From: an uncultured Candidatus Saccharibacteria bacterium
GTDB lineage: Bacteria > Patescibacteriota > Dojkabacteria > J137
Length of the DNA stretch: 64,000 nucleotides
Reading direction: 5' to 3'
Assembly: GCA_964414295.1 (NCBI GenBank)
Contig: CAYPVU010000007.1
Location: forward strand, 43,492-107,491
Shown: positions 21,566-44,914 of the stretch, in pieces
Numbering within the stretch: the first letter of the stretch is position 1
How the letters are laid out: the number at the start of each line of letters is the position of its first letter
Program-made: the position numbers and the translations under genes
The notes under the pieces: generated by a model
The model's database searches: none
Seen by the model: the letters and a program-made list of their open reading frames with translations, nothing else
What the model was told of the DNA's origin: nothing

Positions 21566-23296
21566 TTATGCTAAAGCATAAATTGATATAATCTTGTACA
21601 AGTTAATGGAGAGGTACCCAAGTGGCTCAAGGGGAGGGTTTGCTAAACCCTTAGGTCGGAGTAATCCGGCGCGCAGGTTCGAATCCTGTTCTCTCCGAAT
21701 TTCAGTACGAACAGCTTCTACAAGCTCGGATTGCATTGTTTTCTCAATGGTTATCAGCGGTTCGAAAATATTTTCTGCTACATTTGCATTTTCAAGCACT
21801 TTCGAACTTTCGTTCGTAATATCTACCACTTTCTTTAGAACCTTAAAAGGTTCCGTATATTTGTACTGCATTTTGCCGTTGTAGAGGGTTATATCTCCAA
21901 AGATGTATTTCATTAAGCCGCTTATATCCTCTGGGTCGAGAATATCGTAAATCTCGTCAGCATATTGGGCAACGAAATAAACTAACGTTCCAACCTGATA
22001 ATACTTATTGCTGTCTTTGTTTAATTTCTGAATCTGTTCTTCAATCTTTTCTTTTTCATCCTCTAATTGCTTATTCTTGACTTTGTAAATATCAAGGCTT
22101 ATAAGTTCATCCAGTTTGTCATCATAGAGTCGTGATTGCTTTTCGATTATTTGCTGTAACTCATCACTTAGGGAATCAACGGATATTTTTAAATACTGTT
22201 CTTGCTCTTTATTATCTTCCTTCAATGCTTTTTTAATCCATTCCTTTACTCTTGGCGATTGTACTTTCAAAGCTTTGAGAGCATTTGTTATAACTTCGTC
22301 ACAATCATCTTCACGACCACATTTATTTTGACTACATTCACGATGATGATTACATCTACCATAAATATGACCTTTCTTTTCAAACCAAGAGATTGAACCT
22401 TGGCATTCTTCACATCTGACTAAACCTTTAAGCATATAGAAGTGTTTACTATATTTTGCATCGGGTTTTCTGGATAATGCTTGTTGAACTCTAGTAAATA
22501 ATTCTTTACTAATAATTGGTTCATGTTTACCGTTCGTATAAACTTTCCCGTTCCATTGGAAAGCACCATAGTAAAAAGGATTGCGTAGAATTTCGTGCAT
22601 ACGGCTCTTCACTATCTTTCGACCTTGTTTATTTCGCATACCATCTGCATTCATCCTTTCGGTTAGTGTTTCAAGTGAGTAATTACCAGTTACAAATAAC
22701 TCAAAAGACTTTTTAATAAATTTTGCAGCATCTCCATCAACAACATGAATTTTACGTTTAGTACCCATTCCTTCTACAGATTTGTATCCAAGTGGAGCCG
22801 AGCCAGGATACCAACCTTGTTCAATCTTTTCGGTTTTACCTTTTCTAACTTCTTCTGATAGATTGTCAGCATAGTTTTTAGCCATTGCGACACGTATATC
22901 CCAATTTAATTTATCCTGAGACTTCGAATGTTTATGAAGTTCAAGAGAATCTTTTACGCAATGTAATTCTCGTCCTTCATCTGCTTCTAACCAGTTATAA
23001 ATATCGACACTAGAGTGTATTGAACGAGTTACTCTATCTACCTTTTCGAATACTAAAACGTCAATAGCTTCTTCTACTGCCAATTTAAGTATCTTATTAA
23101 ACTCTTTTCGTTCGTCTTTCTTGCTAGCTGATTCTGAGATAGTAAACACATGTTTTATATCCAGATTCTTTCTTTGAGCGTGTTCTGTAAGTAGTTTTAC
23201 TTGTGAAGGCAATGAGTATCCTTCAACCTCTTGGTCTTTTGAACTAACTCTAGCTACTACTATGCAACTTTTATTTGTGTTACTTTTTGTATTCAT
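21566..23296 (-). CDS. Large serine recombinase (resolvase/invertase-type catalytic domain + recombinase + zinc-ribbon domains)
   Basis: N-terminus CIVVARVSSKDQEVEGYSLPSQ (catalytic Ser motif). Central recombinase region, cysteine-rich CxxC..C..C segment, coiled-coil C-terminus. Its last ~45 codons are read antisense through the tRNA-Ser gene. Confidence 0.85.
   Translation of the reverse strand: MNTKSNTNKSCIVVARVSSKDQEVEGYSLPSQVKLLTEHAQRKNLDIKHVFTISESASKKDERKEFNKILKLAVEEAIDVLVFEKVDRVTRSIHSSVDIYNWLEADEGRELHCVKDSLELHKHSKSQDKLNWDIRVAMAKNYADNLSEEVRKGKTEKIEQGWYPGSAPLGYKSVEGMGTKRKIHVVDGDAAKFIKKSFELFVTGNYSLETLTERMNADGMRNKQGRKIVKSRMHEILRNPFYYGAFQWNGKVYTNGKHEPIISKELFTRVQQALSRKPDAKYSKHFYMLKGLVRCEECQGSISWFEKKGHIYGRCNHHRECSQNKCGREDDCDEVITNALKALKVQSPRVKEWIKKALKEDNKEQEQYLKISVDSLSDELQQIIEKQSRLYDDKLDELISLDIYKVKNKQLEDEKEKIEEQIQKLNKDSNKYYQVGTLVYFVAQYADEIYDILDPEDISGLMKYIFGDITLYNGKMQYKYTEPFKVLKKVVDITNESSKVLENANVAENIFEPLITIEKTMQSELVEAVRTEIRREQDSNLRAGLLRPKGLANPPLEPLGYLSINLYKIISIYALA
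21608..21697 (+). tRNA. tRNA-Ser (anticodon GCU), type II with long variable arm
   Basis: Cloverleaf read by eye: acceptor GGAGAGG/TCTCTCC, 3-bp D-stem, anticodon stem AGGGT/ACCCT with loop TTGCTAA (GCU), long variable arm, T-arm GCAGG-TTCGAAT-CCTGT, discriminator G. 90 nt, no encoded CCA. Confidence 0.85.
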
Positions 23297-23317
23297 TTTT
23301 ATGAATTAACAATTAAA

Positions 23318-23647
23318 TTATAATATTTTTTGTTCTAACATTCCTTTGAATTTTTGGCTTTTATAGACAAGGTTATTGCAAGTTCGACATGCCACAACGC
23401 CAGTCAAAGGATGTTTATATAGTTTTCCAATTCGTTTATTGCAGCGAGGGCAAGTAAACCAGAATCGTAATCCATATCTAGTCTTTGAGGTTGTTAGCTT
23501 TACTTCTAATCCTTCGACATTGATTTGCGACTTTATAAATGATTCCTTTGCCTGTAAATAGAATTGCTTAACTAAATCATTGATGTTGATTTGCTCAGCC
23601 GTTTCTACTAAAAAACTTCCTGAATCAATTGGCTTTATTGTTTTCAT
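23318..23647 (-). CDS. Small zinc-ribbon protein
   Basis: CPRCNKR...CRTCNN pair of CxxC motifs. 109 aa. Confidence 0.4.
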   Translation of the reverse strand: MKTIKPIDSGSFLVETAEQININDLVKQFYLQAKESFIKSQINVEGLEVKLTTSKTRYGLRFWFTCPRCNKRIGKLYKHPLTGVVACRTCNNLVYKSQKFKGMLEQKIL

Positions 23648-24239
23648 CTTGTGGTGTTGTTATTGAATTAAACTGCTGATTTTGCCCAACTATTGCTGTC
23701 TCAGCTTTTAGAGTGACCTTTAGTGACGGTGATTTAAGTTGCTGTAACGTTGTTAAAGCTGTTAGATATTGTCTGTTAGCTTTATCTATCTCTTTACTCA
23801 AGAAATTGTAGTAGTTGGTGTGGTCTGAACTTATTTTGACCGAATCGCCTGACATACAGTGCATTAACCTTCGTGAAAGTCCTAGAGACCTACAAAAAGC
23901 ATTTACAATAATTTCTACCAGTGACTTTTCTTGAATAGTTTTGCAGTTATGTTCTTTAATTAAGTCTTGCGTCATTTTGATAGCCATAGGAGCCATGTGG
24001 TCACCAACTGATTCTGCAAGGTTAAAATGCTTATCGAACTCGTAAACATGCCCAAAGATGTTTAGTACATCTTGTTCAACTCTGCTTAGCTTATCGGCAT
24101 CTTGCTCTTTGTTTTTTGCATAATCTAGTATTCGTAAGACTTTTCTAGTTATATATTCTGGTTCAAGATTATGATTACCTATACTTTCCAGTGCTGTTTT
24201 GATTCTATCGTCTAATGAAGTACTAATTTGTTTATCCAT
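23625..24239 (-). CDS. Hypothetical protein
   Basis: 204-aa ORF inside the island's minus-strand block. Confidence 0.35.
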   Translation of the reverse strand: MDKQISTSLDDRIKTALESIGNHNLEPEYITRKVLRILDYAKNKEQDADKLSRVEQDVLNIFGHVYEFDKHFNLAESVGDHMAPMAIKMTQDLIKEHNCKTIQEKSLVEIIVNAFCRSLGLSRRLMHCMSGDSVKISSDHTNYYNFLSKEIDKANRQYLTALTTLQQLKSPSLKVTLKAETAIVGQNQQFNSITTPQDENNKAN

Positions 24240-24248
24240 AAATGATTA

Positions 24249-25526
24249 TTAAGAAATAAATTTATCTAATTGCGAATCTAAATTTTTTACCCTCCCAGAC
24301 TGTTCACTATTGTTTCGTTCTAATCTTGTAGGGGTATAGCGTAAAATTCGCTTATCATTTCTATCTTGCTCAAGTTCCAAAAGCCCTGCTGTTTCTAGCA
24401 TTGGCAATATTTGCAGCCTTAGTTTGTTTTCCTCGAGTAGTTGACTTGTTTCCTCGTAATATCTCCTTCTAATGTCTTCTCGCTTAATACCGAATCGTGA
24501 AGTCTCTTTATGGCTTACATTCATTCGTATATATTCAGGAACTACAATATTCCAGTACAGGTTATAAATGTAGGGTGGAAGGTTGTATTCTTGTGGTTCG
24601 GAAAGTGAATCCCAGAGTCTATAGGCTTCACGCACATCTTCTTCTGTAGCCTCGATAGTGTTGCCGTATCTGTTTCTAAAAGGGAAATTAAGCAGACTGA
24701 TTACTTTGATTAGCGAAACAACTCTGCCAATGTCCCTCGTATGCCTTGGCTTAGGTGTTTTGCGTGTCTGCCAGAACAGTTCTACTATCAATTTCTTATG
24801 CTCGACTATATTTACATCGCTAACTCCCGATTCTTTTATGGCAATAATTCGCTCCATTAACTCACGACGCTTTGGATTTGAATTAAGTTGCTCAATGTAA
24901 TTATTAAAATCTGATTCTTTCTCGACTTTGGTGTATACAGACTCTCTAATCTTCTCACTATCAATTTCAGGCGATAAAAGCAGAAACCTTGTACCTTCCT
25001 GTTCGTCAATCTTCATGCCAGCACTACAGAAGATAACTGCTGGGTAGCCAATTAACTCAATTTCTTTCGTCTTCAACCCTGCTTTTTGTTTCTTGTCGGC
25101 AATTTGCACTCGTAGAACCTTCTCATCGTGGGAAAGTAGCGGTCTAAGTCTTTGCAGTAGTTCAGTGTGTGGCTGGTCTTGAAATATGATTATCTTATTG
25201 GATAAGTCGATAACAATGACATGCCTTGATTCGTCCCATTTACCAGTCCCATGAAAGAATGCCATGGGTGAACTGTAGGCAAGCGTCAGCACATCTTCTT
25301 TTGGAAAAAGTGTCGAAACTTCCATCGGAATAAACGACTTACCTGTAGACGAAGGTGCATTGAAGCTGATATTAAACTGAGAGTTTTCAGTGTAAATAGA
25401 GAGCATGCATAAGAACGCTACTAGCTTGTTCATGTTGTCCTTTTTGATTGTTAATTCGAGAATCTCGACTATCTCATTAAGGGTTATTGGTTCTAAAGAA
25501 GGTTTTTCGGTTGTTTGCATTTTCAT
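24249..25526 (-). CDS. P-loop NTPase, putative replication (primase/helicase-associated) protein of mobile element
   Basis: Walker A NAPSSTGKSF. Size and context (between the integrase and regulator genes) are typical of satellite/prophage replication modules. Confidence 0.4.
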   Translation of the reverse strand: MKMQTTEKPSLEPITLNEIVEILELTIKKDNMNKLVAFLCMLSIYTENSQFNISFNAPSSTGKSFIPMEVSTLFPKEDVLTLAYSSPMAFFHGTGKWDESRHVIVIDLSNKIIIFQDQPHTELLQRLRPLLSHDEKVLRVQIADKKQKAGLKTKEIELIGYPAVIFCSAGMKIDEQEGTRFLLLSPEIDSEKIRESVYTKVEKESDFNNYIEQLNSNPKRRELMERIIAIKESGVSDVNIVEHKKLIVELFWQTRKTPKPRHTRDIGRVVSLIKVISLLNFPFRNRYGNTIEATEEDVREAYRLWDSLSEPQEYNLPPYIYNLYWNIVVPEYIRMNVSHKETSRFGIKREDIRRRYYEETSQLLEENKLRLQILPMLETAGLLELEQDRNDKRILRYTPTRLERNNSEQSGRVKNLDSQLDKFIS

Positions 25527-25546
25527 ACGTAATAAAAACTAAGTTG

Positions 25547-25954
25547 TTATTTGATTCCTAGTGCTTCTTTTGAAGCAAATAATGGGAAGTCGCTTCTAAG
25601 GTAAAGTTTCGTACAATATTTCGAATCTCCTAAAATTGGGCATATGAATTGGAATTTGCCTTTCTCATCTTGTGTAATGGAAACCTCTTGCGAAACATGA
25701 ATGTTCTCGTCCCTTTCGGCAGACTCTAAGAAGTACCCAAAATGAAACTCTAAACTACCAAACCAGCCATTACTTCTCATTATGTGCAGGTCAAATATTT
25801 CATCGTTGCTAAGTTTGAGTTTAGGATGAAAGCAAAACTTCTCAGTTATTTCAAAGTCTTCATTGACAGCTAAACCCGCTTTAACTAAATCTTCTACGTC
25901 AACACTTAAAACAACCTCTGATTCCTTAATTGGTTGTAAACTTGGAACTTTCAT
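25547..25954 (-). CDS. Hypothetical protein
   Basis: 135-aa ORF. Confidence 0.3.
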   Translation of the reverse strand: MKVPSLQPIKESEVVLSVDVEDLVKAGLAVNEDFEITEKFCFHPKLKLSNDEIFDLHIMRSNGWFGSLEFHFGYFLESAERDENIHVSQEVSITQDEKGKFQFICPILGDSKYCTKLYLRSDFPLFASKEALGIK

Positions 25955-25983
25955 AAATAAATTTGTTAATAAATAAAATACTG

Positions 25984-26193
25984 TTAATCGTTTGTTTCGG
26001 ATTGCTCTTGCTTAGTATTTCGTTCAACAATCGCACTAAGTTTCCCTCGCTTTTTAGAAACCGCTTGTGTGAGTAGCGAGTACATGCCTTTGAGGCTTTC
26101 TCCAAACAGTTTTAGGTCACTGTCAGTTAGTTGAATCTGAAAGTCTTCCCAAAGAATTTGTTTTAGCTCGGCTAATAACTCATCACTTATCAT
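25984..26193 (-). CDS. Small hypothetical protein
   Basis: 69 aa. Overlaps the next small ORF in phage-like fashion. Confidence 0.25.
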   Translation of the reverse strand: MISDELLAELKQILWEDFQIQLTDSDLKLFGESLKGMYSLLTQAVSKKRGKLSAIVERNTKQEQSETND

Positions 26194-26425
26194 AGATTCG
26201 TCCTTTTATAATTCTTAATTGCTGATAAAATCGCTTAGGCTCAACTCTTAATTCGTCTTGCCAGAATTGTTGAACTAGTTGTTGTAATTCAGAGGAGTTA
26301 TCAAATGCAAATTCAACTCTACTATCATTAGACCTGTCTACGAATTTGATGGGGAAATACAAGCTGATAGTAATAGCCAAGGCTAAATCAGAAGTAGTGA
26401 ATAGGTTGGTTGGGTTCATTGTCAT
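26183..26425 (-). CDS. Small hypothetical protein
   Basis: 80 aa. Confidence 0.25.
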   Translation of the reverse strand: MTMNPTNLFTTSDLALAITISLYFPIKFVDRSNDSRVEFAFDNSSELQQLVQQFWQDELRVEPKRFYQQLRIIKGRIYDK

Positions 26426-26516
26426 AAAGTTAAAAACTTATATGACTTGATTTTACGAAGCAAGTCTTTCGCAAACCATTAGCGAAACGATGGGAAAGAT
26501 TGGGGGATTGATGGGA

Positions 26517-27119
26517 TTATGAAGTCTGAAACGATGTCACTTTGAAACCTTGACTACGAATAGAGACAATCATATTTCTTATTTGTTCTGCTATTTTCTT
26601 TGGAACACCACACCCAACTAAATCATTTACAAGTTCTGCTTTATATTGTTGTGTTGCTAAAGCGTCATCCAGTGGGGATAAATCTTTGTCTATTGACTCG
26701 ATAATATCTGAGTATTTAACCAGATTCTCTTTCTTCTTTAATAGAATTATTAGCATAGCAATCGAGCGATTCTTTATCTTGACGTTAGGGTAAACCACAC
26801 CTTCCCAGAACAAATTGCATTTATCTATATCGATTGTTAGCTTGCCACACTCAAGAATATTCGGAGGACTTTGTAATTCTCCCTCTACAACAAGTTTGGC
26901 TTTATCATCTTGTAATTTCCCGATAATGAATCTGTGGAATAATCCAAACTGTCTGTCTATCTCTTTTCTTGCTGGTATTTGCTCTCGTTTATCTAATACA
27001 TCTCCACTCAGAATGGTATTTACTTCGTTGCTGAGTTTGGAATTATCTTCGATAACTAGATTATCGGCTCCAATTTTCTGTAATCTTTCCTGATTATCTA
27101 TATCGTTATCAACAACCAT
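26517..27119 (-). CDS. Hypothetical protein (first gene of minus-strand block, divergent from XRE gene)
   Basis: 200-aa ORF facing a ~210-bp AT-rich divergent intergenic region. Confidence 0.35.
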   Translation of the reverse strand: MVVDNDIDNQERLQKIGADNLVIEDNSKLSNEVNTILSGDVLDKREQIPARKEIDRQFGLFHRFIIGKLQDDKAKLVVEGELQSPPNILECGKLTIDIDKCNLFWEGVVYPNVKIKNRSIAMLIILLKKKENLVKYSDIIESIDKDLSPLDDALATQQYKAELVNDLVGCGVPKKIAEQIRNMIVSIRSQGFKVTSFQTS

Positions 27120-27330
27120 AGTGATAAGGAAATGTTATAGAAAACTTCGAACCGCTTTTAATTAGAATATTAAACGAAACTTATTCTGATTACGAGCAGG
27201 CCGGATTACCTAAGAATGGTTACACTATTCAGATGGAGCATGACATTAAAAGACTTTATCAAATTAAAATAAAAGACTTTATAAACAGTAACAAATAAGT
27301 TACAATAATCATAACTTTAAACATTGAATT

Positions 27331-27561
27331 ATGAACGAAGAGCAAAAAATCGAAGCATTCTTAACTCACTTAGAAGATTTACTCGCAGAAAAAGGATGGA
27401 GTATCCCTACATTCGCTAAAAAAATGAAAGTTTCGAAAGTTACTGTTTATCGTTGGTTAGATGGTAAAGCAGTAATGAGTTTAGCACACTACTATAGAGC
27501 CTTAGAGGTTCTAGGATTGGAAGAAAGCTTAACTGTTAAAGAAAATAACGATGGAATTTAA
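27331..27561 (+). CDS. XRE/Cro-type helix-turn-helix transcriptional regulator
   Basis: IPTFAKKMKVSKVTVYRWLDGKAV helix-turn-helix. 76 aa. Divergently transcribed from the minus-strand block. Confidence 0.6.
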   Translation: MNEEQKIEAFLTHLEDLLAEKGWSIPTFAKKMKVSKVTVYRWLDGKAVMSLAHYYRALEVLGLEESLTVKENNDGI

Positions 27562-27916
27562 ACCTTCTAAAACCGTATTTATTGTTCAAATGATATTCGG
27601 TGTTTTAATGCTATGCCCTACTTTTGGATTATGGATTTTTGTGATGATTCCACAAATACTAAGCTATTTAAACCAATCATTACACGTTAATGAGAGTGGT
27701 TTAATTATGAGAACTGGAATATTGAATGTTACTACTCAGGATATTAAATACTCAAAGATAAATTCAATAACAGTAAGAAAAAGCCTTTTAGGTAGGTTCT
27801 TAAATTACGGAACTTTGGTAATATTTACAGGAAACGATCTAGGCGGAATTGCTTTTAAGAATCTTGATGAACCTTACAAGGTGAAATCTATACTAGACAA
27901 CAAAATCGCAGGGTAG
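27551..27916 (+). CDS. Membrane protein with bacterial PH (YdbT/DUF304-like) domain
   Basis: Two N-terminal TM helices, then ...ITVRKSLLGRFLNYGTLVIFTGND..., typical of bPH_2. Confidence 0.5.
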   Translation: MEFKPSKTVFIVQMIFGVLMLCPTFGLWIFVMIPQILSYLNQSLHVNESGLIMRTGILNVTTQDIKYSKINSITVRKSLLGRFLNYGTLVIFTGNDLGGIAFKNLDEPYKVKSILDNKIAG

Positions 27917-27977
27917 GAAAATGGTATTCCGCCGGCTTCATAACCCGGAGTAGATAGTTCGAATCTATCCCCTGCAA
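27907..27977 (+). tRNA. tRNA-Met/Ile2-like (anticodon CAU), 71 nt, island-encoded
   Basis: Acceptor CGCAGGG/CCCTGCA with a C1xA72 mismatch, D-arm GGAA-AATGGTA-TTCC, anticodon arm CCGGC-TTCATAA-CCCGG (U33, CAU, A37; C31xC39 mismatch), 4-nt variable, T-arm GATAG-TTCGAAT-CTATC. Short D-loop and variable loop. Confidence 0.45.
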
Positions 27978-27998
27978 GATATTTTTTATTAAGAATAT

Positions 27999-28235
27999 AT
28001 GTTCAACTTCTTTAAACCGAGATACATCGCATTTTTTAGTAAAGGTACTAATGATGAAGGCCAAAAAGTAGAAGTTGAAGTAACTCTTCCGGTTAATTCT
28101 TTCAGATTAGCAGAAGTTTTCACTGCAGATAAGTATTTTGTTGAATTATTAGCGCAACCGATAGGATGGGAAATTTCAAAAGAAACTTATATGAAGCTTC
28201 GAAAGTTCTTACATATTAAAAGTACAAGGCTATGA
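27999..28235 (+). CDS. Small hypothetical protein
   Basis: 78 aa. ATGA-type overlap with the next gene. Confidence 0.3.
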   Translation: MFNFFKPRYIAFFSKGTNDEGQKVEVEVTLPVNSFRLAEVFTADKYFVELLAQPIGWEISKETYMKLRKFLHIKSTRL

Positions 28236-29239
28236 AGATAGCTTTTTTAGGTAATTTCAGAGTAGATTATACTTCCGAAACACACTATTTAAAAACACTA
28301 CAAAGATTAGGCCATGAAGTTATTGCTATTCAAGAAGGAAGTGCAGAATTAGCAGTGAATAAAGAATCTTTTTTCAAGAATCTCGCAACTGTAGATATGT
28401 TCTTTTGGGTACATACTCACGGATGGAAAACAGAAGGACTTAGTAAAGTAATGCAGATAATTCGAACAAACAATATTCCGGTAGTTGGTTATCATTTAGA
28501 TTTATGGAAAGGTTTAAAACGAGAAAAAGACTTAGAAACCGATGATTATTGGAAATATCTAACCCACTTCTTTACCTGTGATAAATTATTCATTCCTGAT
28601 TTAGAAGAAAGAGGAATAAAGGCATATTTCTTACCTGCAGGAGTATTTCAAGATGAATGCTATTTAGGAGATTGGAAAGAATATTACAATTACGATGTTA
28701 TATTTGTAGGTTCGAAAACTTATCATCCGGAATGGCCATATAGAACGCAATTAATAAACTGGTTAGAAAAAAAATATGGAAAAAGATTTGCGCTTTTTGG
28801 AATGCAAGGTGTAAATAAAGCACAAATTAGAGGTAAGGAATTAAACAATTTATATGCTTCCGCAAAAATAGTAATTGGCGATACGCTATGTAAAGGATTT
28901 GATTATCCTTACTACCTTTCAGATAGAATTTTCGAAACAACCGGAAGAGGCGGTTTTATAATTCATCCTTATATCAAGGGGATTGAGAATTTGTTTAATT
29001 TAGGCCTTTATACTGCAGATGGGAAAGGTTTTAGAGCAGAAGGAAGAGAGCTAGTTACCTACAAGTTTAATAATTTTGATTATTTAGAATATTCGATTGA
29101 TTATTTTCTTAAACACGAGGATGAAAGGGAAATGATAAAACTAGCAGGCCATGAAAGAACTAAGAAAGATCACACCTACAAAAGCAGGATGTGGTTTATT
29201 ATAAATACTTTATTTCCTGATACAACGAACATTATATGA
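28232..29239 (+). CDS. Hypothetical protein (possibly glycosyltransferase-1/CgeB-like fold)
   Basis: The MKIAFLGNF... N-terminus resembles Rossmann-type GT1/CgeB starts. No firm motif. Confidence 0.3.
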   Translation: MKIAFLGNFRVDYTSETHYLKTLQRLGHEVIAIQEGSAELAVNKESFFKNLATVDMFFWVHTHGWKTEGLSKVMQIIRTNNIPVVGYHLDLWKGLKREKDLETDDYWKYLTHFFTCDKLFIPDLEERGIKAYFLPAGVFQDECYLGDWKEYYNYDVIFVGSKTYHPEWPYRTQLINWLEKKYGKRFALFGMQGVNKAQIRGKELNNLYASAKIVIGDTLCKGFDYPYYLSDRIFETTGRGGFIIHPYIKGIENLFNLGLYTADGKGFRAEGRELVTYKFNNFDYLEYSIDYFLKHEDEREMIKLAGHERTKKDHTYKSRMWFIINTLFPDTTNII

Positions 29240-29489
29240 AAATTGAAACGATTAAAGTAATTGAAAAAACAATAAGTGTACTATCTACAGTATGGTCAAG
29301 TGAAGATGTTTATAAACTACCACAGCAGCAGGAGACATCTTTAGAGCTATATTTGTTTCAGAATATTTGAAGAGTAAGAATACTGAATCATCACTAAAAG
29401 TAGCTTTGGAAACTGCGACCGAGTCAACAAGGTATAAAGGTGTTAACAATACAATTACTCAACTATTCCATCGAACTAAGAAATAACTT

Positions 29490-37550: not shown

Positions 37551-37565
37551 TCAAAGTCCAGCAGA

Positions 37566-39110
37566 TTACCACCACCTTGGATCATCTCCATCCCAATAAG
37601 AAGGCCTGCTTCCATACCAACTTTGTCCCCCACCTCTGAGTAAAGCTGCTGCTTCTCCAGTAATGACTTGAACTCCAGGTCTGTCTTTTTCTGCAACTTT
37701 TAGTAATACCATAGTAAATGCATCGACCAAATCATCATGTTTTTCTACACCAAAATATATAAGTTGCTGTATTAAATCTTCAGCTCCATTTCTCGGAAAT
37801 AGAACTTGACCTAATCGAATAAATGGAGTGACAGAATTTAATCTTGATCTTTTATCTTGTCCATGAACTTTAAACCCTTTTGCATTCAGTCCTTTATTTT
37901 TTAATTGCTGAATTACCGATGCTTGATATCCTACCTCTTCAATATATACTTCAGGTCTTCTGCCATAATGTTGCTCACGGCCTTTTTCTTTCAATACCTC
38001 AATTGTTGTTGGAAACTCAACTCTTTTATTAAATGGATGCGGTAAAATGTAAACCTTCAATTTTTCAAGGTTCCCAAATACATGTGCCGTTACCATAGCA
38101 CTGTAGTCTGCAGAATCATTCATAGAAATAGCTAGATCAACTCCGATAATTGTATACTCGTAATCTTTAGTATTTTCAGGCAAGGTGTCATAATATTGTA
38201 TCCATTCTCGATAAACTAGCTGATCATCTTCAGGAATAATTTTAAGCATGTATTCTCTTTGCCATGCTTTATCATCTCCTATGATGTTTTTAAAATCATT
38301 AATGGCATCCATATCCTTAAATTTACTTAGCCAAAGTATGTTATTGTTGCTATCTACAATTGGATATTCTCGAAATATTGCATTCATATTTTCTTCAGTA
38401 ATTTTCTTCTTTAATCTCATAAGAAGAGAATCTTCGTGCAAAAGATTTCCAATCATTATTATTTTTGTAGTTTGATCACCAAGAGGAATAACTTCACCAG
38501 TTAACCATGAATATGTTTTATCTCTGCTTTCTTTTGTTTTAATAGTAGCTAGATCTTCAACATCATCACAGATTATTAAATCAGGTCTATGAGCTCCATG
38601 TCTAATACCTCGAATACTTTGCTCACTAGAAGCTGCAATAATTCTTGCATTAAATTTTGGAAGAACCAATGAGTATGAACCCCATTCATCAGATTCTTCT
38701 TCTAAAGCTCCTAAATCATTTCTTAAAACTTCATTACTTTCTAGCTCACGTTTTAAATTGGCAAAGTGAGTTCTAACTTGTTGTTGAGTTTGAGAAATTA
38801 TTACAACACATTTCTTTTGTTGCTTACCTAAAATTGCCCATAGAGGGTATGACATTGTCATGATTGTTGATTTAGCAGATCCTCTAAATGCAATGATTAC
38901 TGCCATCTTTATTTCATCATCTTCAGTTATTTTGAACATTTCTCTTTGAAAATCAGCTGTAGGGTAAGCAACATACTCACTAAAATATAGATGAAAAAAC
39001 CAATAATGACTTTCTCTTGTCAATTCTTTTCTAGCTCTTTTATCAACTAGAATCTTTTCAATTATTTCCATAGGCATCTCGAAATCTTTATTAATTTGTT
39101 TCTTGTTCAT
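37566..39110 (-). CDS. terL: Phage-type terminase large subunit (ATPase + RNaseH-like nuclease)
   Basis: Walker A AFRGSAKST, Walker B LIICDDVED, and C-terminal nuclease acidic residues (GVDLAISMNDSADYSAMV, KHDDLVDAFTM). Confidence 0.8.
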   Translation of the reverse strand: MNKKQINKDFEMPMEIIEKILVDKRARKELTRESHYWFFHLYFSEYVAYPTADFQREMFKITEDDEIKMAVIIAFRGSAKSTIMTMSYPLWAILGKQQKKCVVIISQTQQQVRTHFANLKRELESNEVLRNDLGALEEESDEWGSYSLVLPKFNARIIAASSEQSIRGIRHGAHRPDLIICDDVEDLATIKTKESRDKTYSWLTGEVIPLGDQTTKIIMIGNLLHEDSLLMRLKKKITEENMNAIFREYPIVDSNNNILWLSKFKDMDAINDFKNIIGDDKAWQREYMLKIIPEDDQLVYREWIQYYDTLPENTKDYEYTIIGVDLAISMNDSADYSAMVTAHVFGNLEKLKVYILPHPFNKRVEFPTTIEVLKEKGREQHYGRRPEVYIEEVGYQASVIQQLKNKGLNAKGFKVHGQDKRSRLNSVTPFIRLGQVLFPRNGAEDLIQQLIYFGVEKHDDLVDAFTMVLLKVAEKDRPGVQVITGEAAALLRGGGQSWYGSRPSYWDGDDPRWW

Positions 39111-39492
39111 CTTCTGAATTATTAACAGATAAATTAAACGCCATGCTCAACGATTTTCTAATCGTTTCTTTTTGTTCTTCAGTTAGCGGAAGATCAGCAC
39201 TTTTAGTAGTAACTTCTAACTTTGGAGAGTATTGCTTATGGTGATTTTTAAGCCAGAATATGATCCCTGTCATATTTCCATTTTTAATTGATGTTATTAA
39301 TTGGCTCTCAGCCATATCATTAACCAACTGAGAGCCCTCATTTAAAGCAAATTCCGCTTCTTCAGCAAATTTCTGATCTCTTTTCTTCCATCTATAGAAT
39401 GTCGCTCTGCCGATTCCAATCTTTTTACAAGCAACTTCAATGACTGGAGTTTTTCTTAGTTGTTCAACTAATTCTTTCTTTTTATTTTTCAT
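39091..39492 (-). CDS. Terminase small subunit-like HTH protein
   Basis: ACKKIGIGRATFYRWKK HTH. Size 133 aa. Immediately upstream of terL and overlapping it. Confidence 0.5.
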   Translation of the reverse strand: MKNKKKELVEQLRKTPVIEVACKKIGIGRATFYRWKKRDQKFAEEAEFALNEGSQLVNDMAESQLITSIKNGNMTGIIFWLKNHHKQYSPKLEVTTKSADLPLTEEQKETIRKSLSMAFNLSVNNSEDEQETN

Positions 39493-42287
39493 GATATTTT
39501 TACTCCTTTCTTACCAGTTAATTTTTCCCAACGATTCTTAATTACTTCTGCATAAACTGGTGATTTTTCCATTAAGTAACATCTTCTTTTCATTTTTGTT
39601 GATGCGATTAGTGTTGAACCGCTTCCTCCAAATGGTTCAATTATCAAATCATCCCTTTGGGTCAGAACTTTAATGTATGGAATTAGAATTTCGAGTGGCT
39701 TAGTTCCAAAAATAATTCCTTGACCAGAACTTTTTTCATCTGAAGCTTTATATTCAATAAAGTCAGTTGGCTGAATCTTTTTTCCTTTTTCATATCCTTC
39801 CCAGTGTGGTTTACCAGCAGTTGCATAGAGAGCAGATTCGTATTCATTTTGTAGAAGCTCATCTTCTGGTTCTAAGTTCAAAGTTTCTTTATTTTCAGTT
39901 GACCCAACCATAGCAATATCATGCTTCGAAAAGAATTTATATTTAGCTGCAAATCCTTGATTCCTATTTGGGAGATGCCAAACTAACATATTCTTAACTT
40001 TCCAGTATTTTTCCATTTCATTCCAAATTGTTCTAATGTTTTTCCAATTTTCATAAACGATAATATGAAAGTTGTCCTTCGAAATTTTAGATACATTCCC
40101 CATCCATAGCTCTGTAAAGTTATCCGGGAGCTCATCTAACTGATTCTCGTGTTGATAATTAATTGACCTAGAAATTAAATATTTTAAAGGCTTAGAATTA
40201 ATCCAATCAAAAATTAATATGGAATAAAATTTCAAGAGATTAATTTGCTTTTCATTTTTTGCAAGTTTAAGTATCTGATCTCTGCCTACCTCTTCTTCTT
40301 GCCAGTTATAGTATTTGTGCATAAATTTTAGCACTTCAAGAATTTCATTTGTTGTTGGGTTACTAGTGAGCTTAATAAGAGAGTTACTATCTAGTTTCAA
40401 GATTTGATTCTGATACTCTAGACTAATTGATGATGAAACCTTAAGTATATCCATTGGAACTTTATTTGAATTAGTTTCATTTTCAAGAACCTTAGCCGAG
40501 TCAGGGATTTCTGTTAGGAGTGTGTTTAAAAATACTGATCCGGTTCTTTCGATTGAGTGCAGAAGTGCGATATTTGAATAGTGATTTAAGATTTCTACTT
40601 CGTAATTGGTGTTACTTTTTCTAGTTAACTCATGGTCTCCTAGAGTTAAAAATATATTCTCATAAAACTTTTTCTGTCCATCTATAACTTGCGATTTTAC
40701 TTTCGGCGGTTTTTCTTTTGAGAAAAGATCTTCAAGTACACTTTTCTTATTCCAGTCTTTAGCATTCTTTTCTTTAACGACAAAGATGTTGCCTGAGAAT
40801 TCCTTACTAAGCCTACCAGCTCTACCAATAAGATTCAGGAAATCTACCTTTCTAAAGTTTGACATACCGATTTTCTCACTAAGTATGAATATATTTTTTG
40901 CTGGAAGATTCACTCCTTCTAATAATGTTGAAGTACAAAAAAGATAATCCAGATGACCGTTCCTAAATAAATTCTCTAGTTGGACTCTAATTCTCTGAGG
41001 TAGATCACCAAAATGAAATCCTATTCCTTTTTTAAGGCAATTTATTAAATAATATTCTTCATGAATAGTTTCTTTTATTAGCTTTATAAGTTGATTAACC
41101 TTTTCGTCATTCTTATCCAATAGTTGCTCCGAAAATTGAATAGCATAATCTCTTGTTTTATTTTTAGAATTACAATAAATTATACTTTTCCCAGTTCCAG
41201 AAATTGAAGTTATCCATTCAAATAAGCCTTTATCGTTATTCAAATGCATAGAACTTGTTTCAAATTCTCCAATAATTTTTAATTCTTGATCCTGGAGATC
41301 AAGGAAATATTTATTTTGTGATACTGGACTTTCAATAGTATAAAAAGATTCATCAGTGCTCTTATCAAAAAGTTTCAGGTAAATCTCAGGATTAGATATG
41401 TTTGGTGATGCAAAGTATAGTTTCATAGATTTCTTTTGCGCCTGCAAAATCGCATGATAATACAAAGGACTTCTTGTATCTTTTTCTGATATGACTTTAT
41501 GTGCTTCGTCAATAAACAAATATTCAATTGAAGGATTATTTTTGTCAGATATGTATGATATTAACCTCTCAGGAGTGAAAATAAATATGTAATTATTACC
41601 CTTATTTTTTATGTATTGTGGAATTTTCGGATGAACTAGTATTTCGAAATTATTAATCTCTTTAAAATTCTCCTTAAGCTTTAAAAGATTTTGATTGATT
41701 AGTGCACGTGTTGGCACTAGAATTGCAATATTATCCTTAATTTTTTCTTCAATAATTAAATATTTTATAAATGATTCAATAATAAATGACTTTCCTAATG
41801 ATGTTGGACCAGAGAAGCTAAAATGTTGATTTTTCTTTAGTAGTTCAAATATATTGTACTGGCTATCCGTAAATACAAGTTCTGAATTAGGAACAGCTTG
41901 AATTGAGCGTTTTATAGTTTCTTCATATTGATTTTCAGTAGGAATTTGAAATTCAGCATTACTTCTTGTCTTTTCAAAAAATTTAATAGCAGGGAAATTC
42001 CCAAGTTTAACTAATATTACTTTTAAGATGTTTTCTATAATTTGAGGAGATTTATGATACTCAAAAATAAGACTAACTATTTTATATGCTAAATTTCTTG
42101 CCATTTCATTTTGTGACGAAGATAATATGTCTGCAAACCTCAATAAGTGATAGAATTCTTTTTCAGATAGACCTTCATCAATTTCAGTACTCAGTATATT
42201 CTCATAGGATATATTCACCTCAAGTTTAGTTATAATTTTCGCAAGGTAGTTATCATTAAGTGCTTTTTTTGCTAACTGTTCTATCAT
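39489..42287 (-). CDS. SF2 DExH helicase fused to a C-terminal beta-class N4/N6 DNA-methyltransferase-like domain (catalytic DPPY motif not found)
   Basis: Helicase motifs: SGPTSLGKSF (I), ILVPTRAL (Ia), FIDEAHKV (II), TSTLLEGVNLPA (V), LIGRAGRL (VI). C-terminus: LVWHLPNRNQGFAAKYKFFSKHDIAMV and GTKPLEILIPYIKVLTQRDDLIIEPFGGSGSTLIAS match the PF01555-type segment ..TQKP..DPFxGSGTT. No D/N/SPPY motif upstream (VYENW occupies that position). Confidence 0.7.
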   Translation of the reverse strand: MIEQLAKKALNDNYLAKIITKLEVNISYENILSTEIDEGLSEKEFYHLLRFADILSSSQNEMARNLAYKIVSLIFEYHKSPQIIENILKVILVKLGNFPAIKFFEKTRSNAEFQIPTENQYEETIKRSIQAVPNSELVFTDSQYNIFELLKKNQHFSFSGPTSLGKSFIIESFIKYLIIEEKIKDNIAILVPTRALINQNLLKLKENFKEINNFEILVHPKIPQYIKNKGNNYIFIFTPERLISYISDKNNPSIEYLFIDEAHKVISEKDTRSPLYYHAILQAQKKSMKLYFASPNISNPEIYLKLFDKSTDESFYTIESPVSQNKYFLDLQDQELKIIGEFETSSMHLNNDKGLFEWITSISGTGKSIIYCNSKNKTRDYAIQFSEQLLDKNDEKVNQLIKLIKETIHEEYYLINCLKKGIGFHFGDLPQRIRVQLENLFRNGHLDYLFCTSTLLEGVNLPAKNIFILSEKIGMSNFRKVDFLNLIGRAGRLSKEFSGNIFVVKEKNAKDWNKKSVLEDLFSKEKPPKVKSQVIDGQKKFYENIFLTLGDHELTRKSNTNYEVEILNHYSNIALLHSIERTGSVFLNTLLTEIPDSAKVLENETNSNKVPMDILKVSSSISLEYQNQILKLDSNSLIKLTSNPTTNEILEVLKFMHKYYNWQEEEVGRDQILKLAKNEKQINLLKFYSILIFDWINSKPLKYLISRSINYQHENQLDELPDNFTELWMGNVSKISKDNFHIIVYENWKNIRTIWNEMEKYWKVKNMLVWHLPNRNQGFAAKYKFFSKHDIAMVGSTENKETLNLEPEDELLQNEYESALYATAGKPHWEGYEKGKKIQPTDFIEYKASDEKSSGQGIIFGTKPLEILIPYIKVLTQRDDLIIEPFGGSGSTLIASTKMKRRCYLMEKSPVYAEVIKNRWEKLTGKKGVKIS

Positions 42288-42288
42288 A

Positions 42289-43200
42289 TTAGGATGTTAT
42301 AGATTGAGTTATATCAGTTCTAGCTTTATCTAGTTCTGTAAAAGGTAAAATGTATAGATAAAAGCAATGGCCAGCTAAATCATGTTCACTAATCTTATTT
42401 GAAATATTTTTGAACTGACCTTCCACTTCTTTTCTTATTTTATTATTTATAGAATTTCTAAAATCATTATTTGACAATCTCTTTTCTTCGGGAGATAGCT
42501 CTATCTCATAACCTATAAATATCCCAAAAGCATCATCTACCTGGAAACTATTACTTTCTTTTGGATAAATCAAATCTTGAATGATTGAAATTTCCTCAGC
42601 TGTGAAAGATTCATTCTCTAGGTGGCTACTAATAAGGGCCTTCTCAAAATTAATCCCACTTTTTTCATCCCCTTTATTATTTACCTCATTTTTGAAATCT
42701 GATATAGATTTTAAGGCTTCACTTATGGCATTCGTAAGATCCTTTATTGTTTTGGACTCTCCAAATATGATTTGATAGTTACCATTTTCTAGTCTAAGAA
42801 AATGGATACCGTCTGAGCCATTTACATAAAATTTATTAGATGTCTTTAATTCTAGTTTAGATAATATTTTGGGAGCTTTAAGATGATTTTTTAAAAAACA
42901 ATAAAGCAAAAGCTCACCAAGTTCTCCTGTATTCATTTCCTTTATGAATCTTTCTCTAGCTCGCTTAGATAGAGTGGCCGGTTTCCCTTGTAGTTTTTCT
43001 CTTGTTTTTCCGGATAATGAAAAGTCTATTAAAGGTTCCAATAATCTTTCTTTAATAAGATCATAGTTAAATGAGTTGGCATTAATATTATGGACAAATA
43101 GACTTAGTTTAGTTTTAGGGTTTAGTGGATCTATTTCCCTACTATCTATTAAATTTACAAATGATTCTAAAAAATCATCATTCATATCTATATTTTTCAC
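42289..43200 (-). CDS. PD-(D/E)xK-like nuclease candidate (Hachiman HamA-like position)
   Basis: VNGSDGIHFLRLENGNYQIIFGESKT gives D-x18-ESK, compatible with the PD-(D/E)xK core. 303 aa. Abuts the helicase gene with a 1-nt spacer. Confidence 0.35.
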   Translation of the reverse strand: MKNIDMNDDFLESFVNLIDSREIDPLNPKTKLSLFVHNINANSFNYDLIKERLLEPLIDFSLSGKTREKLQGKPATLSKRARERFIKEMNTGELGELLLYCFLKNHLKAPKILSKLELKTSNKFYVNGSDGIHFLRLENGNYQIIFGESKTIKDLTNAISEALKSISDFKNEVNNKGDEKSGINFEKALISSHLENESFTAEEISIIQDLIYPKESNSFQVDDAFGIFIGYEIELSPEEKRLSNNDFRNSINNKIRKEVEGQFKNISNKISEHDLAGHCFYLYILPFTELDKARTDITQSITS

Positions 43201-43288
43201 TTATACCAAATAAAATTAGTTGAAATATTTTCATAATGAAATCTCATTCTGATTTTTGGTAGAATTATATCAAAATTATATATAAATT

Positions 43289-44914
43289 ATGCAATATCTT
43301 CAGAATCAACAATATTATGAAGATCGTTATGACTTATTAACTATCGAGCTTTGCCTAGATAAGATTGATTTCGTAAATAAGGTTGCAAAAGATTCTCTTG
43401 ATTCTCCTGATTTCAAAAATACTCCAATCGAAGAGGTTGATAAAGGATGGCGATATGTTCTGCATGAACAGCTTTTAAATACCGAATTACACAGATATAA
43501 GAATCGAGAAACTGAAATAAACAAATCAATAGAAGAAGCCAGACTCAGACAAGATAAGTATGATAATACTCCAGCTCCATCAGTTAAATGCACTACTTGC
43601 AGAAAATTAATGGATGTAACAATGAAGTCACTTGATTGGCATGATACGGATCCAAAGAAAATGCTATTTTTCTTTGAATGCCCTTCATGTAAGAAGCGTA
43701 AACATGTTTGGGAAGATGGAAAGGAATGGATCTATGAACCCGATCTTTGTCCAAAATGTAAGTCAGAAGTTAAGCAAAGTTATAAACGAAAAGGCGATAT
43801 AGTTACTACTATAATAAAATGTACTTCATGTAGTTATAAGAATGTAGAAGTTGATGACTATAAAAAAGATGAGGAAGAAAGATTGCTGAAAAAACAAAAA
43901 GAGAAAGATTTATTAGAAAAATATAGACCAGAGTTTTGTTTATCAAAAGAGAAAGGTGATGAGTTACTGGATGGATTTGAACAGCTCAAGTTTATGAATG
44001 AAGTATATGAATATGAACTTCAAAAATACCAAGATCCAGCTTTTGAAAAAACCTTTAATGTAAAAAAGCTAACCATTATTGAACTTGAAAAGCTACTTAA
44101 TAAAAAGTTAGTTAAATATAAGTTTAAAAAATTAATTTTAGATAAACCCGAAATTACTCGATTTGTCATAGTCCCATTCTCAGTTCAAGATAATGATACA
44201 AATAGAAACAACAAAGATAGTACTAAAGAATTAGAGAAAATAATTAAAGAAACTTTAGAGATAACAAACTGGAGACTTACACCAGATGGTACTTCGTATA
44301 GATTAGGATATATATCAGGAAGGTTAAAAGGCTATGAACGAGATGAAGACCTACATGAATTATTTGGTAAAAAGAATGAAGAACCTAAAACAGAATTAGA
44401 TCCTGAGAAACTTTCAAAGTATTCAAATACTGCTGAAATAGCAAGATTATTTGCTAAGGTAGAAATAACAGATAGGTTAAGAAAGAAGAGATTAGTAAAA
44501 GAACCTGAGGGTTTCTTTTTAGAAGATCGAGAATCTGGTTATTCATGTAATCTTTGCTCTAGAGGTCTTAAAGGCAGTGAATCATGGTGGAACTTAGACG
44601 GTATTCAATGCATAGACTGCAGAAGAAATGTAAAGGAAGGAATAATTCCTGCTGAAATTATTAAGAATCATGATCTTTGGATTGCAAATTGGCAATTTAA
44701 AAGTGAATTTCGATTACATTCTGCTACAGTTAGCAAAATGAAACGAAATGGTGAACTCGTCGGTCGAGAATTAAAAGATTTAGAAGGTAAGACTTACTTT
44801 ACTGTTTACATGGTTGAAGATAATAAAAAGTTCTTTAAGAAGCATAGAAAGACTTCAAGCAATAATAGAAAATGGGAGTTTGTTGATAAGGATGGAATTG
44901 AGATATTACTTTGA
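43289..44914 (+). CDS. Zinc-ribbon-rich hypothetical protein
   Basis: At least five CxxC pairs (CTTCRK, CPSCKK, CPKCKS, CTSCSYK, CNLCSR...CIDCRR). 541 aa. Divergent from the nuclease/helicase operon. Confidence 0.4.
   Translation: MQYLQNQQYYEDRYDLLTIELCLDKIDFVNKVAKDSLDSPDFKNTPIEEVDKGWRYVLHEQLLNTELHRYKNRETEINKSIEEARLRQDKYDNTPAPSVKCTTCRKLMDVTMKSLDWHDTDPKKMLFFFECPSCKKRKHVWEDGKEWIYEPDLCPKCKSEVKQSYKRKGDIVTTIIKCTSCSYKNVEVDDYKKDEEERLLKKQKEKDLLEKYRPEFCLSKEKGDELLDGFEQLKFMNEVYEYELQKYQDPAFEKTFNVKKLTIIELEKLLNKKLVKYKFKKLILDKPEITRFVIVPFSVQDNDTNRNNKDSTKELEKIIKETLEITNWRLTPDGTSYRLGYISGRLKGYERDEDLHELFGKKNEEPKTELDPEKLSKYSNTAEIARLFAKVEITDRLRKKRLVKEPEGFFLEDRESGYSCNLCSRGLKGSESWWNLDGIQCIDCRRNVKEGIIPAEIIKNHDLWIANWQFKSEFRLHSATVSKMKRNGELVGRELKDLEGKTYFTVYMVEDNKKFFKKHRKTSSNNRKWEFVDKDGIEILL

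Follow-up and report, generated by a model that had tools for sequence, protein, structure and literature searches.

Two unrelated serine-recombinase elements, probably inserted in tandem, downstream of a tRNA-Ser gene in a Dojkabacteria-like genome

To our knowledge, the mobile elements of the candidate phyla radiation (CPR, Patescibacteria) are barely described, and the closest systems come from other hosts. The PICI-like element (PLE) satellites of Vibrio combine a large serine recombinase (LSR) with replication and small-terminase (TerS) functions in a capsid-less island of ~18 kb, classical phage-inducible chromosomal islands (PICIs) and P4 lack the large terminase subunit (TerL), and capsid-forming PICIs (cf-PICIs) carry TerL alongside a capsid and portal of their own. 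Genes split by integration are found in the SSV1-type archaeal integrases and in the integration-dependent immunity of mycobacteriophages, in which attP lies inside the repressor gene; we know of no serine-integrase prophage or satellite (phiC31, Bxb1, A118-type, PLE) that splits its own recombinase gene at attP. The staphylococcal cassette chromosome elements (SCC/SCCmec) are organised around Ccr large serine recombinases and the MCM-like helicase Cch (PMC7581432). The present analysis concerns a 64,000-nucleotide stretch of DNA (the window) from a Dojkabacteria-like CPR bacterium, in which a strain-variable accessory stretch (21,698-44,923) lies between tRNA-Ser(GCU) and a conserved gene cluster with a tryptophanyl-tRNA-synthetase-like (TrpRS-like) gene. 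This stretch is very probably an insertion hot spot just downstream of the tRNA gene, holding two unrelated LSR elements in tandem: a 13,428-bp integrative element (element 1, 21,698-35,125) with recombinase LSR1, and a 9.8-kb older accessory block (block 2, 35,126-44,923) with recombinase LSR2.

The separation of the two elements is visible in L006, a 19.6-kb Logan contig (SRR12997672) reached via HamB homologues, which comes from a near-identical strain without element 1. Positions 1-13,649 of L006 correspond to window 48,770-35,123 (99.96% identity, blastn) and positions 13,647-19,282 to window 21,697-16,062 (99.98%), the right flank, the HamA-to-LSR2 block and the left flank being as in the window with nothing between the 277-aa and 190-aa genes. 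The excess of the window over L006 is exactly 13,428 bp, 21,698-35,125 with one copy of a 3-bp overlap, CCG, counted. Block 2 is present in both strains and adjoins the tRNA-Ser 3' end directly in L006; element 1 would have entered later, between the tRNA and the already resident block 2. The initial annotation, made from the sequence alone, had left a choice between two elements inserted in tandem and a single element carrying an invertase- or resolvase-type second recombinase, and the comparison with L006 bears out the former and rules out the latter. The dissimilarity of the two recombinases on which that choice was based is also real: the N-termini quoted at the time (CIVVARVSSKDQ and YCLYARKSSESD) are both found in the sequence, the proteins are 30% identical over 326 aa, and each matches Resolvase and Recombinase as well as the integrase family PHROG_95, with the serine motifs ARVSSKDQ and ARKSSESD visible in LSR1 and LSR2. 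Neither protein is on record in an exact-protein look-up.

The insertion of element 1 took place at the 3' end of tRNA-Ser(GCU) (21,607-21,698, plus strand; ARAGORN; Rfam tRNA, 52.1 bits), which is the attB host gene. Left-flank identity to L006 stops at 21,697 and right-flank identity starts at 35,123, placing the crossover core CCG at 21,695-21,697 in attL (tRNA positions 71-73) and at 35,123-35,125 in attR; this core consists of the final two acceptor-stem bases and the discriminator of the tRNA. The empty site in L006 reads ...CTCTCCG-CCATTTTGC and the occupied site in the window ...CTCTCCG-AATTTCAG, with attB reconstructed as ...GTTCTCTCCGCCATTTTGC... and attP as ...CCCAAGCTTCCCGAATTTCAGTACG.... 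LSR1 would recombine attP with attB inside the CCG core. A core of a few base pairs, common to attL, attR and the empty site, with a 3-bp overlap and no long repeat, matches what a serine integrase leaves, and in this and in the Resolvase, Recombinase and zinc-ribbon domains of its integrase the element resembles the serine-integrase prophages of the phiC31, Bxb1 and A118 types. The att direct repeats for which a search had been suggested did not materialise, as a direct and inverted repeat search gave only chance-level AT-rich matches and the true junctions share only 3 bp. Since tRNA genes elsewhere in the window do not encode CCA, the mature tRNA-Ser (positions 1-73) is unaffected by the insertion.

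The same target is used by related elements on other contigs. An attL-type junction, ...GAAAT(T/A)CGG-AGAG..., is common to all five elements in which the LSR 3' end is available (the window, L010, L011, L181 and L182), being identical as ...ATTCGG-AGAG... in the window, L011, L181 and L182 and having one mismatch in L010 (ATACGG). Each of the five junctions enters a tRNA-Ser gene in antisense through its 3' end, always at one and the same position; the tRNA is complete in the window and L182 (GCU) and in L181 (UGA), and the L010 and L011 contigs stop inside it. On the attR side, the junction CGG-GAAGC.TGG.ACGATTTT is common to the window, L181 and L182. The elements measure 12.3-13.5 kb and their far-side host flanks are unlike one another. 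Past the CCG core, the host-side half of attB is wholly different in the window (35,123-35,145, the end of block 2), L181 (660-686) and L182 (1470-1495), and LSR1 may recognise its target chiefly through the tRNA half-site.

The attP site lies inside the LSR1 reading frame, and integration therefore changes the C-terminus of the protein. In its integrated form LSR1 is a 576-aa protein (21,566-23,296, minus strand; Pfam Resolvase 4e-20, Recombinase 3e-19; PHROG integrase 1e-77) that has a resolvase catalytic domain with the serine nucleophile motif (PF00239, 4.2e-20) and PF07508, and its match to PF13408 (Zn_ribbon_recom), at 18.9 bits, falls under the cut-off of 25.3. The open reading frame (ORF) spans attL and is identical in both states through the shared CGG codon (534), after which the integrated codons 535-576 lie outside the element, antisense through tRNA-Ser. 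Joining the element ends, as in a circular form, gives a 570-aa LSR1 ORF whose tail after the shared codon, EAWDDFRTSNWVNIIKYPESFIQQGVQLLSVVNVQI, is encoded at the opposite end of the element by the displaced LSR1 3' end (35,012-35,125, minus strand; the shared CGG core codon, 36 codons and a stop). The effect of integration is to exchange the final 36 LSR1 codons for 42 that are read antisense from the tRNA.

Although 12-13 kb separate it from the remaining LSR gene once the element is integrated, the displaced tail has been conserved in relatives. The conserved tail of the circle-form protein, ...PESFIQQGVQLLSVVNVQI, recurs at the far end of L181 (83% over 36 residues) and of L182 (75% over 36 residues), in both cases on the LSR strand with CGG immediately before it, and in L010 (95% over 19 residues), the contig of which starts inside the tail-coding segment; between the window and L010 it is the sole conserved stretch at the cargo end. 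As in the archaeal integrases and the mycobacteriophage repressors, attP lies in a coding sequence, so that the integrated and excised states differ in a protein C-terminus; those systems, however, use tyrosine recombinases, whereas here the split gene is that of an LSR and the replacement tail is antisense to a tRNA. The tail swap may alter the behaviour of the enzyme. In L181, the LSR1 homologue (12,247-13,908) is broken into ORFs of 130 and 417 aa by an apparent frameshift, which may have immobilised that element, and its far-end tail is still conserved.

Element 1 is also compositionally foreign. Its GC content of 34.9% exceeds the 29.8% and 31.3% of the two flanks and the ~30% of the window, and its GC at third codon positions (GC3) is 0.31 against 0.18-0.21 in the flanks (Mann-Whitney p = 2e-8), so that the uniform codon usage that would have spoken against an island was not seen. 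We regard it as a recently mobile and probably self-replicating integrative element.

The conserved backbone of element 1 runs, in L009-L011, L181 and L182, in the order DUF5659, 69-aa, 135-aa, 425-aa, 204-aa, zinc-ribbon and LSR genes, except that L181 and L182, which do have the DUF5659 and 69-aa genes, showed no 135-aa gene. In the window these genes are all on the minus strand and comprise, besides LSR1, the three small genes (135 aa, 69 aa and the 80-aa DUF5659 protein, Pfam 3.9e-9; 25,547-26,425), the 425-aa gene (24,249-25,526), a 204-aa gene whose position is kept in the same five relatives (23,625-24,239; no match in Pfam, PHROGs or NCBIfam) and the gene for a 109-aa zinc-ribbon protein (23,318-23,647; weak Pfam Zn_ribbon match), homologues of which occupy the same position in the five relatives at 59-95% identity. 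The 425-aa protein, initially described as a P-loop replication-type protein, has an MCM-like fold and is an MCM-like AAA+ helicase and the presumed replication protein. An AlphaFold (AF2) model built from 45 sequences (pLDDT 80.6) has MCM2-7 and archaeal MCM as its top Foldseek matches (E 7e-9 to 1e-6, probability 1.0), and many of its 1,834 homologues are fused to Toprim or PrimPol primase domains. No relative of this helicase was found among PLSDB plasmids (tblastn), and PDB sequence searches with the 425-, 541- and 277-aa proteins gave nothing useful.

Because the 425-aa model matches MCM helicases, element 1 pairs a serine integrase with an MCM-like helicase, and its layout is in this respect SCC-like, by analogy of organisation only. 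The likeness lies in a conserved backbone operon that encodes an LSR, an MCM-like helicase and small proteins, in variable cargo, and in site-specific insertion at the extreme 3' end of a conserved housekeeping gene that is not inactivated. The differences are a tRNA-Ser target in place of rlmH (orfX), one LSR in place of the CcrAB pair, an attP inside the recombinase gene and a CPR host.

The remainder of element 1 consists of a possible control region and cargo. A divergent pair (26,517-27,561), made up of a 200-aa gene on the minus strand and a gene for a 76-aa XRE-type helix-turn-helix (HTH) protein on the plus strand (27,331-27,561; Pfam HTH_31, HTH_3 and HTH_26; PHROG transcriptional regulators) with a 211-bp intergenic region, is a putative regulatory switch. 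We infer excision, replication and regulation of the element: after excision, the MCM-like helicase would drive replication and the XRE-type divergent pair would control the switch. There follow, on the plus strand, a 121-aa bPH_2 membrane protein with one hydrophobic segment (27,551-27,916; Pfam bPH_2 7.8e-14; PHROG membrane-flanked domain) and a tRNA-Met(CAU) gene (27,906-27,978; ARAGORN; Rfam, 55 bits), which is initiator-like because of its C1-A72 mismatch. The cargo genes (27,999-34,988, plus strand) encode proteins of 78 aa, 335 aa, 1,027 aa, ~320-360 aa, and 75, 158 and 122 aa, and differ from the cargo of L009-L011, L181 and L182. The 335-aa protein is glycosyltransferase-like (Pfam Glyco_trans_1_2, 5e-19), the 1,027-aa membrane protein (29,490-32,573) has four N-terminal hydrophobic segments in its hydrophobicity profile, and the ~320-360-aa protein is membrane-anchored and of low complexity, with weak TolA-like matches. 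Apart from the glycosyltransferase-like protein, the cargo proteins had no match in Pfam, PADLOC, PHROGs or NCBIfam, and an NCBIfam search of ten orphan proteins returned nothing useful.

A GC-rich structured element, noticed earlier in this cargo, corresponds to the Rfam family LOOT (RF03000) at 32,631-32,776 on the plus strand, after the 1,027-aa gene and ahead of the following gene for a membrane protein. In Rfam, LOOT is listed as metagenome-based (PMC7779021). The match scores 43.3 bits, 3 bits below the gathering threshold of 46.4 (E 1.7e-5 in 15 kb, 4.6e-7 in 401 nt), and its cmscan alignment extends over the full model (1-121) and covers every helix of the model consensus; the RNA is best called LOOT-like. 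The stretch flanking it is 85% identical in L011, which holds only a truncated copy at the contig end, and LOOT had no match in the other relatives of element 1. Because the annotated GTG start of the downstream ORF (32,728) overlaps the LOOT-like RNA, its real start is probably an ATG near 32,854.

Block 2 carries packaging and integration genes without a replication gene, whereas element 1 carries integration and replication genes without packaging. LSR2 of block 2 (447 aa; 36,207-37,550, minus strand; Pfam Resolvase 2.7e-20, Recombinase 1.3e-13, Zn_ribbon_recom 7.6e-8) has the full integrase-type domain set, with PF07508 present and PF13408, at 33.1 bits, above the cut-off of 25.3. On the same strand, and only 16 bp from LSR2, lies the 514-aa TerL gene (37,566-39,110; PHROG_38 terminase large subunit, 1e-80; Pfam Terminase_6C), in which the Walker A, Walker B and nuclease acidic residues are invariant in the TerL alignment, followed in the upstream direction by a 133-aa TerS-like HTH protein (39,091-39,492, minus strand; PHROG terminase small subunit, 7e-10 and 2.5e-8; Pfam HTH_Tnp_1_2), a 932-aa chimeric HamB-methylase ORF (39,489-42,287, minus strand) and a full-length HamA, the effector partner in Hachiman (DUF1837; 42,289-43,200, minus strand; Pfam HamA 3e-56; PADLOC 1.2e-107 over residues 4-302).

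These genes mark block 2 as an older, damaged member of a large cassette family. Cassette loci were collected by TerL-alignment scans of JGI metagenomes and IMG/VR, TerL being called in 105 loci, and 10 kb on each side of TerL was read, with all ORFs there clustered. The family order over ~100 metagenomic loci is ParB-methylase, TerS, TerL, 0-8.7 kb of cargo and LSR. TerL is counted 106 times (105 loci and the window), the ParB-methylase 98 times (often in two copies), TerS 85 and LSR 67, and the next most frequent family reaches 15. A co-directional LSR is present in 61 of the 83 loci with at least 1.5 kb beyond TerL, either straight after TerL (29 loci) or after 0.8-8.7 kb of cargo (32), and LSR2 homologues (38-70% identity) lie downstream of TerL in 61 loci. 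The ten large cargo proteins that were sampled belong to defence systems, with matches to Type I, IIG and III restriction-modification, reverse transcriptases, HKD-Snf2 and proteins of PifA/QatA-like type. Upstream in L012 lie genes for Type I restriction-modification and an OLD nuclease, and Hachiman and Shedu are present in L007. In six loci a tRNA gene stands tail-to-tail with the LSR, 116-224 bp from its stop codon, a pattern with which L006 agrees, the tRNA-Ser 3' end there being 1.08 kb from the LSR2 stop. On L007, a 131-kb contig, positions 1-22,577 carry the ParB-methylase, TerS and TerL genes, Hachiman and Shedu (SduA_C) flanked by two LSR2-like recombinases (49-50% identical to LSR2), with heavy-metal ATPase genes coming next.

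The cassette family is widespread and apparently undescribed, neither it nor the family of element 1 being found in the searchable literature, and it pairs phage packaging with anti-phage defence genes. Intact members would integrate by their LSR and package their own DNA via TerS and TerL into helper-phage capsids, and such self-packaging would make them defence-carrying satellites. They share with PICIs, cf-PICIs and P4 an integrase, packaging genes and variable anti-phage cargo, and in some cases LexA-like or XRE regulators, but differ in having TerS and TerL with no capsid or portal in view, an LSR in place of the typical tyrosine integrase, and a ParB-methylase. With the PLEs, the locus shares an LSR accompanied by replication (element 1) and by TerS (block 2), but PLEs encode TerS without TerL and block 2 has both, in a family with the ParB-methylase.

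The damage in block 2 is seen in its Hachiman genes. HamA and the HamB SF2 helicase adjoin each other, co-directional and 1 bp apart, as in Hachiman, with PADLOC matches of 1.2e-107 and 5.8e-246, but the HamB match extends only over profile positions 3-754 of 845 and HamB is not full-length. The chimeric ORF joins HamB residues 1 to ~720 to the C-terminal 210 aa of a ParB-type N6/N4 DNA methylase, residues 717-924 matching PADLOC MTase_II, with the breakpoint at ...NQLDE-LPDNF... (~40,119-40,142). Among the best 120 of 4,224 HamB homologues, the methylase fusion occurs only in P0001 from the same strain; the others measure 793-868 aa (all but one 844-868), align to residues 1-723 and all contain the ~130 C-terminal residues that are missing here. 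Compared with the methylase half, the C-terminal half of a 444-aa ParB_N-methylase in L007 shows 77% identity, and a 442-aa ParB_N-methylase in L012 shows 66%. The methylase half retains the S-adenosylmethionine (SAM) motif FGGSGST, its Pfam match (PF01555) starts at profile position 20 of 221, and no [DNS]PP[YFWH] motif, the motif IV of beta-class methyltransferases, is present in the chimeric ORF. In the full-length L007 methylase TDPPY lies upstream of the breakpoint, and since the breakpoint falls after DPPY, the fragment lacks both the catalytic motif and the ParB domain.

The fusion thus appears to be the scar of a rearrangement, most simply of a deletion. One deletion would have joined hamB at about codon 720 in frame to a co-directional methylase gene at about codon 229, at the cost of the HamB C-terminus and of the ParB domain and catalytic DPPY motif of the methylase. 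Neither the missing HamB C-terminus nor the methylase N-terminus occurs anywhere in the window, and a simple insertion into hamB and an inversion within the window were rejected for this reason. The defence/terminase operon with recombinase 2 that had been described in the initial annotation therefore stands as regards its genes, all of which are present, but one of them is a rearrangement chimera. The other items listed there were likewise located, namely the zinc-ribbon, P-loop and membrane proteins, the XRE HTH gene, tRNA-Met and the structured element.

Two further genes complete block 2. The 541-aa zinc-ribbon-rich protein (43,289-44,914, plus strand) has relatives beside the cassette and beside HamAB and is a composite. 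Residues 1-359 have their counterpart in a 344-aa gene located after HamB in L007 (12,583-13,617) and L008, and the C-terminal zinc-ribbon and HTH-like part belongs to a family (cluster 4) found in 15 cassette loci, mostly upstream and on the opposite strand. An 85% homologue is present in L176 (6381-8009), beside MmeI-like and AAA_21 genes. The protein could be a regulator or a recombination directionality factor. The 277-aa protein (35,341-36,174, minus strand) has a weak HNH-like N-terminus (Pfam HNH_5, 0.006) and no PDB match, and forms a singleton cluster that is not conserved in the cassette family. Beside its stop codon, ~200 bp inside block 2, the sequence CGGTTCGAATCTTGTCC (35,323-35,345) resembles a tRNA T-arm and acceptor end, and could be a relic att half-site or the displaced tRNA 3' end of an older integration at the same tRNA.

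The accessory stretch ends on the right at 44,923/44,924. Relatives found through a 94%-identical TrpRS-like protein (L172-L179, including GCA_030834985.1) are 93.4% DNA-identical to the window rightward from 44,924 for at least 8 kb, and left of the equivalent position each holds other genes, such as those for an MmeI-like restriction-modification protein, an AAA_21 protein and a PycTM protein; a truncated LSR with a TerS-like gene, a DUF4238 fragment, tRNA-Cys and tRNA-Ser(GGA) occur at the same position. Since the accessory genes vary there from relative to relative, the DNA upstream of the TrpRS-like gene forms a hot spot throughout the lineage. Synteny of the entire region, which would have argued against an island, was not seen; the left boundary falls at tRNA-Ser. 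The strand blocks alternate as stated earlier (minus 21,566-27,119, plus 27,331-34,988, minus 35,341-43,200, plus 43,289-44,914), and the limits of the island were off by at most 132 bp at the left junction (21,697/21,698) and 9 bp at the right.

The host lineage was placed through the ThyA-fusion gene of the left flank, for which the nearest species-representative genome is a Candidatus Dojkabacteria metagenome-assembled genome (MAG; 72% aa), further relatives being Patescibacteria MAGs labelled uncultured Saccharibacteria or Patescibacteria group. This gene (18,827-20,452, plus strand) encodes a 541-aa fusion protein that is MtrA-like at the N-terminus and has a thymidylate-synthase domain and, at the C-terminus, the pterin-binding domain DUF4346, and is kept at 49-72% aa in other Patescibacteria MAGs (L001-L005). 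Synteny with the GTDB species representatives was tried for boundary mapping and given up, since these relatives (49-72% aa) diverge straight after the ThyA-fusion gene. The conserved right flank holds two class-I (Trp/Tyr-type) aminoacyl-tRNA-synthetase-like genes 5 kb apart (45,008-46,057 and 51,070-52,194). Homologues of the 349-aa product of the first occur in CPR, archaea and Bacillus and carry no label other than 'hypothetical' or 'tryptophanyl-tRNA synthetase'. Farther right, ARAGORN reports an 85-nt 'tRNA-Asp' with anticodon ATC and a long variable arm (58,312-58,396, plus strand; Rfam tRNA, 42.8 bits), the identity of which is doubtful because the anticodon and arm are odd for tRNA-Asp.

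Other readings of these elements were weighed. That the whole 23-kb stretch is one composite element, with LSR1 as its integrase and LSR2 as an internal invertase or resolvase, would account for two recombinase genes in one contiguous accessory region beside one tRNA, but is scarcely credible: L006 already refutes it, lacking only the LSR1 part at a clean 3-bp junction and keeping the LSR2 part, L181 and L182 have LSR1-type elements with no LSR2 cassette, ~100 loci have LSR2-type cassettes with no LSR1 backbone, and the domains of LSR2, zinc ribbon included, are those of an integrase. Element 1 could alternatively be a phage satellite, packaged by the neighbouring TerS/TerL block or by a helper phage, in place of a plasmid-like integrative element. 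Its size (12.3-13.5 kb among relatives) and modules (integrase, replication helicase, XRE regulator) are satellite-like, an integrase and a replication module being combined in the window within 13.4 kb, inside the ~10-18 kb of satellites that lack the complete set of virion genes, and it directly adjoins a TerS/TerL cassette; the label 'phage-satellite-like' given to the island is plausible. This identity is nevertheless unlikely, as genes for packaging, capsid remodelling or TerS are absent from element 1 itself, no TerS/TerL cassette lies close to its relatives in L181 and L182, and single-protein and profile scans of 2.9 million IMG/VR viral contigs turned up no relative of the helicase. 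The HamB-methylase fusion, in turn, might be a new form of Hachiman that is functional and under selection, such as a helicase joined to the DNA-binding remnant of a methylase, and no inactivating accident of rearrangement, given that the 932-aa frame is intact in two strains, the SAM-binding motif is retained and HamA is full length. This is quite improbable for a fusion that is confined to one strain lineage among the homologues compared and lacks DPPY, the ParB domain and ~130 conserved HamB residues, and two strains ~0.03% apart have had no time for decay.

The account of a self-replicating integrative element beside a satellite-like cassette has points against it as well. Pfam and PHROGs scans found no recognisable packaging, capsid or conjugation gene in element 1, and its circular attP junction had no match in IMG/VR viral contigs. 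A tRNA lies within 3 kb of the cassette LSR in only 9-10 of ~50 loci, which is well above a rough chance estimate but not universal, so that tRNA targeting is a feature of a subset. A homologue of the 541-aa protein follows hamB on the same strand in L007 and L008, whereas in the window the gene precedes hamA on the opposite strand, and a single deletion may not explain the whole arrangement for this reason. Finally, the genes upstream of the cassettes, among them those for repressors of LexA-like and XRE type, Sie-like proteins and helicases, would equally suit the early part of a complete prophage with distant head and tail genes. Block 2 and its family could accordingly be the packaging and integrase end of ordinary temperate phages, in which attP would fall between the genes for LSR and portal, the window copy being a decayed prophage remnant. 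Both terminase subunits are genuine phage proteins, such upstream genes are typical of prophage early regions, several cassette loci come from IMG/VR contigs of 22-55 kb, and the inspection covered only 10 kb on each side of TerL. This alternative deserves to be taken seriously but is the less probable one. Within those 10 kb no capsid or other head, portal or tail family recurs across ~100 loci, and a PHROGs scan of 149 representatives of neighbouring families showed none in its list of 25 families; the TerL-LSR interval, the usual place of the portal, holds restriction-modification or reverse-transcriptase cargo; and the closest terminases are only ~26% identical to TerL in cultured phages, or ~23-28% when plasmids are considered as well. 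In the window the entire block measures 9.8 kb between the tRNA and conserved host genes, with no Pfam or PHROGs match to portal, major capsid, tail or lysis genes anywhere in 21,698-44,923, and in L099 at most ~17 kb separates another LSR from a tRNA.

Both elements work like known kinds, element 1 like SCC-like or serine-integrase islands and block 2 like satellite-like defence islands. A bolder joint reading, which we put forward only tentatively, would make the cassette a new class of capsid-less island that packages itself via a complete terminase into helper procapsids and ferries restriction-modification, reverse-transcriptase, Hachiman and other defence genes among uncultivated bacteria including CPR, and would make element 1 the example of elements with a recombinase split by its own attP, the tails of which switch the direction of recombination. 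The occupied site, the empty site and the exact att sites of element 1 are rare direct evidence in CPR, and provide a testable attP/attB pair with its serine integrase for a group without genetic tools. The LOOT-like RNA places a likely member of a metagenome-only RNA family in a mobile element of a Dojkabacteria-like genome. The recombinase is split by its own attP, with the displaced tail conserved across four independent elements, and its two forms may differ in the direction of recombination, which, if true, would be a possible built-in switch. If the cassette is mobilised by phage capsids, it would link the turnover of defence islands to packaging in uncultivated bacteria.

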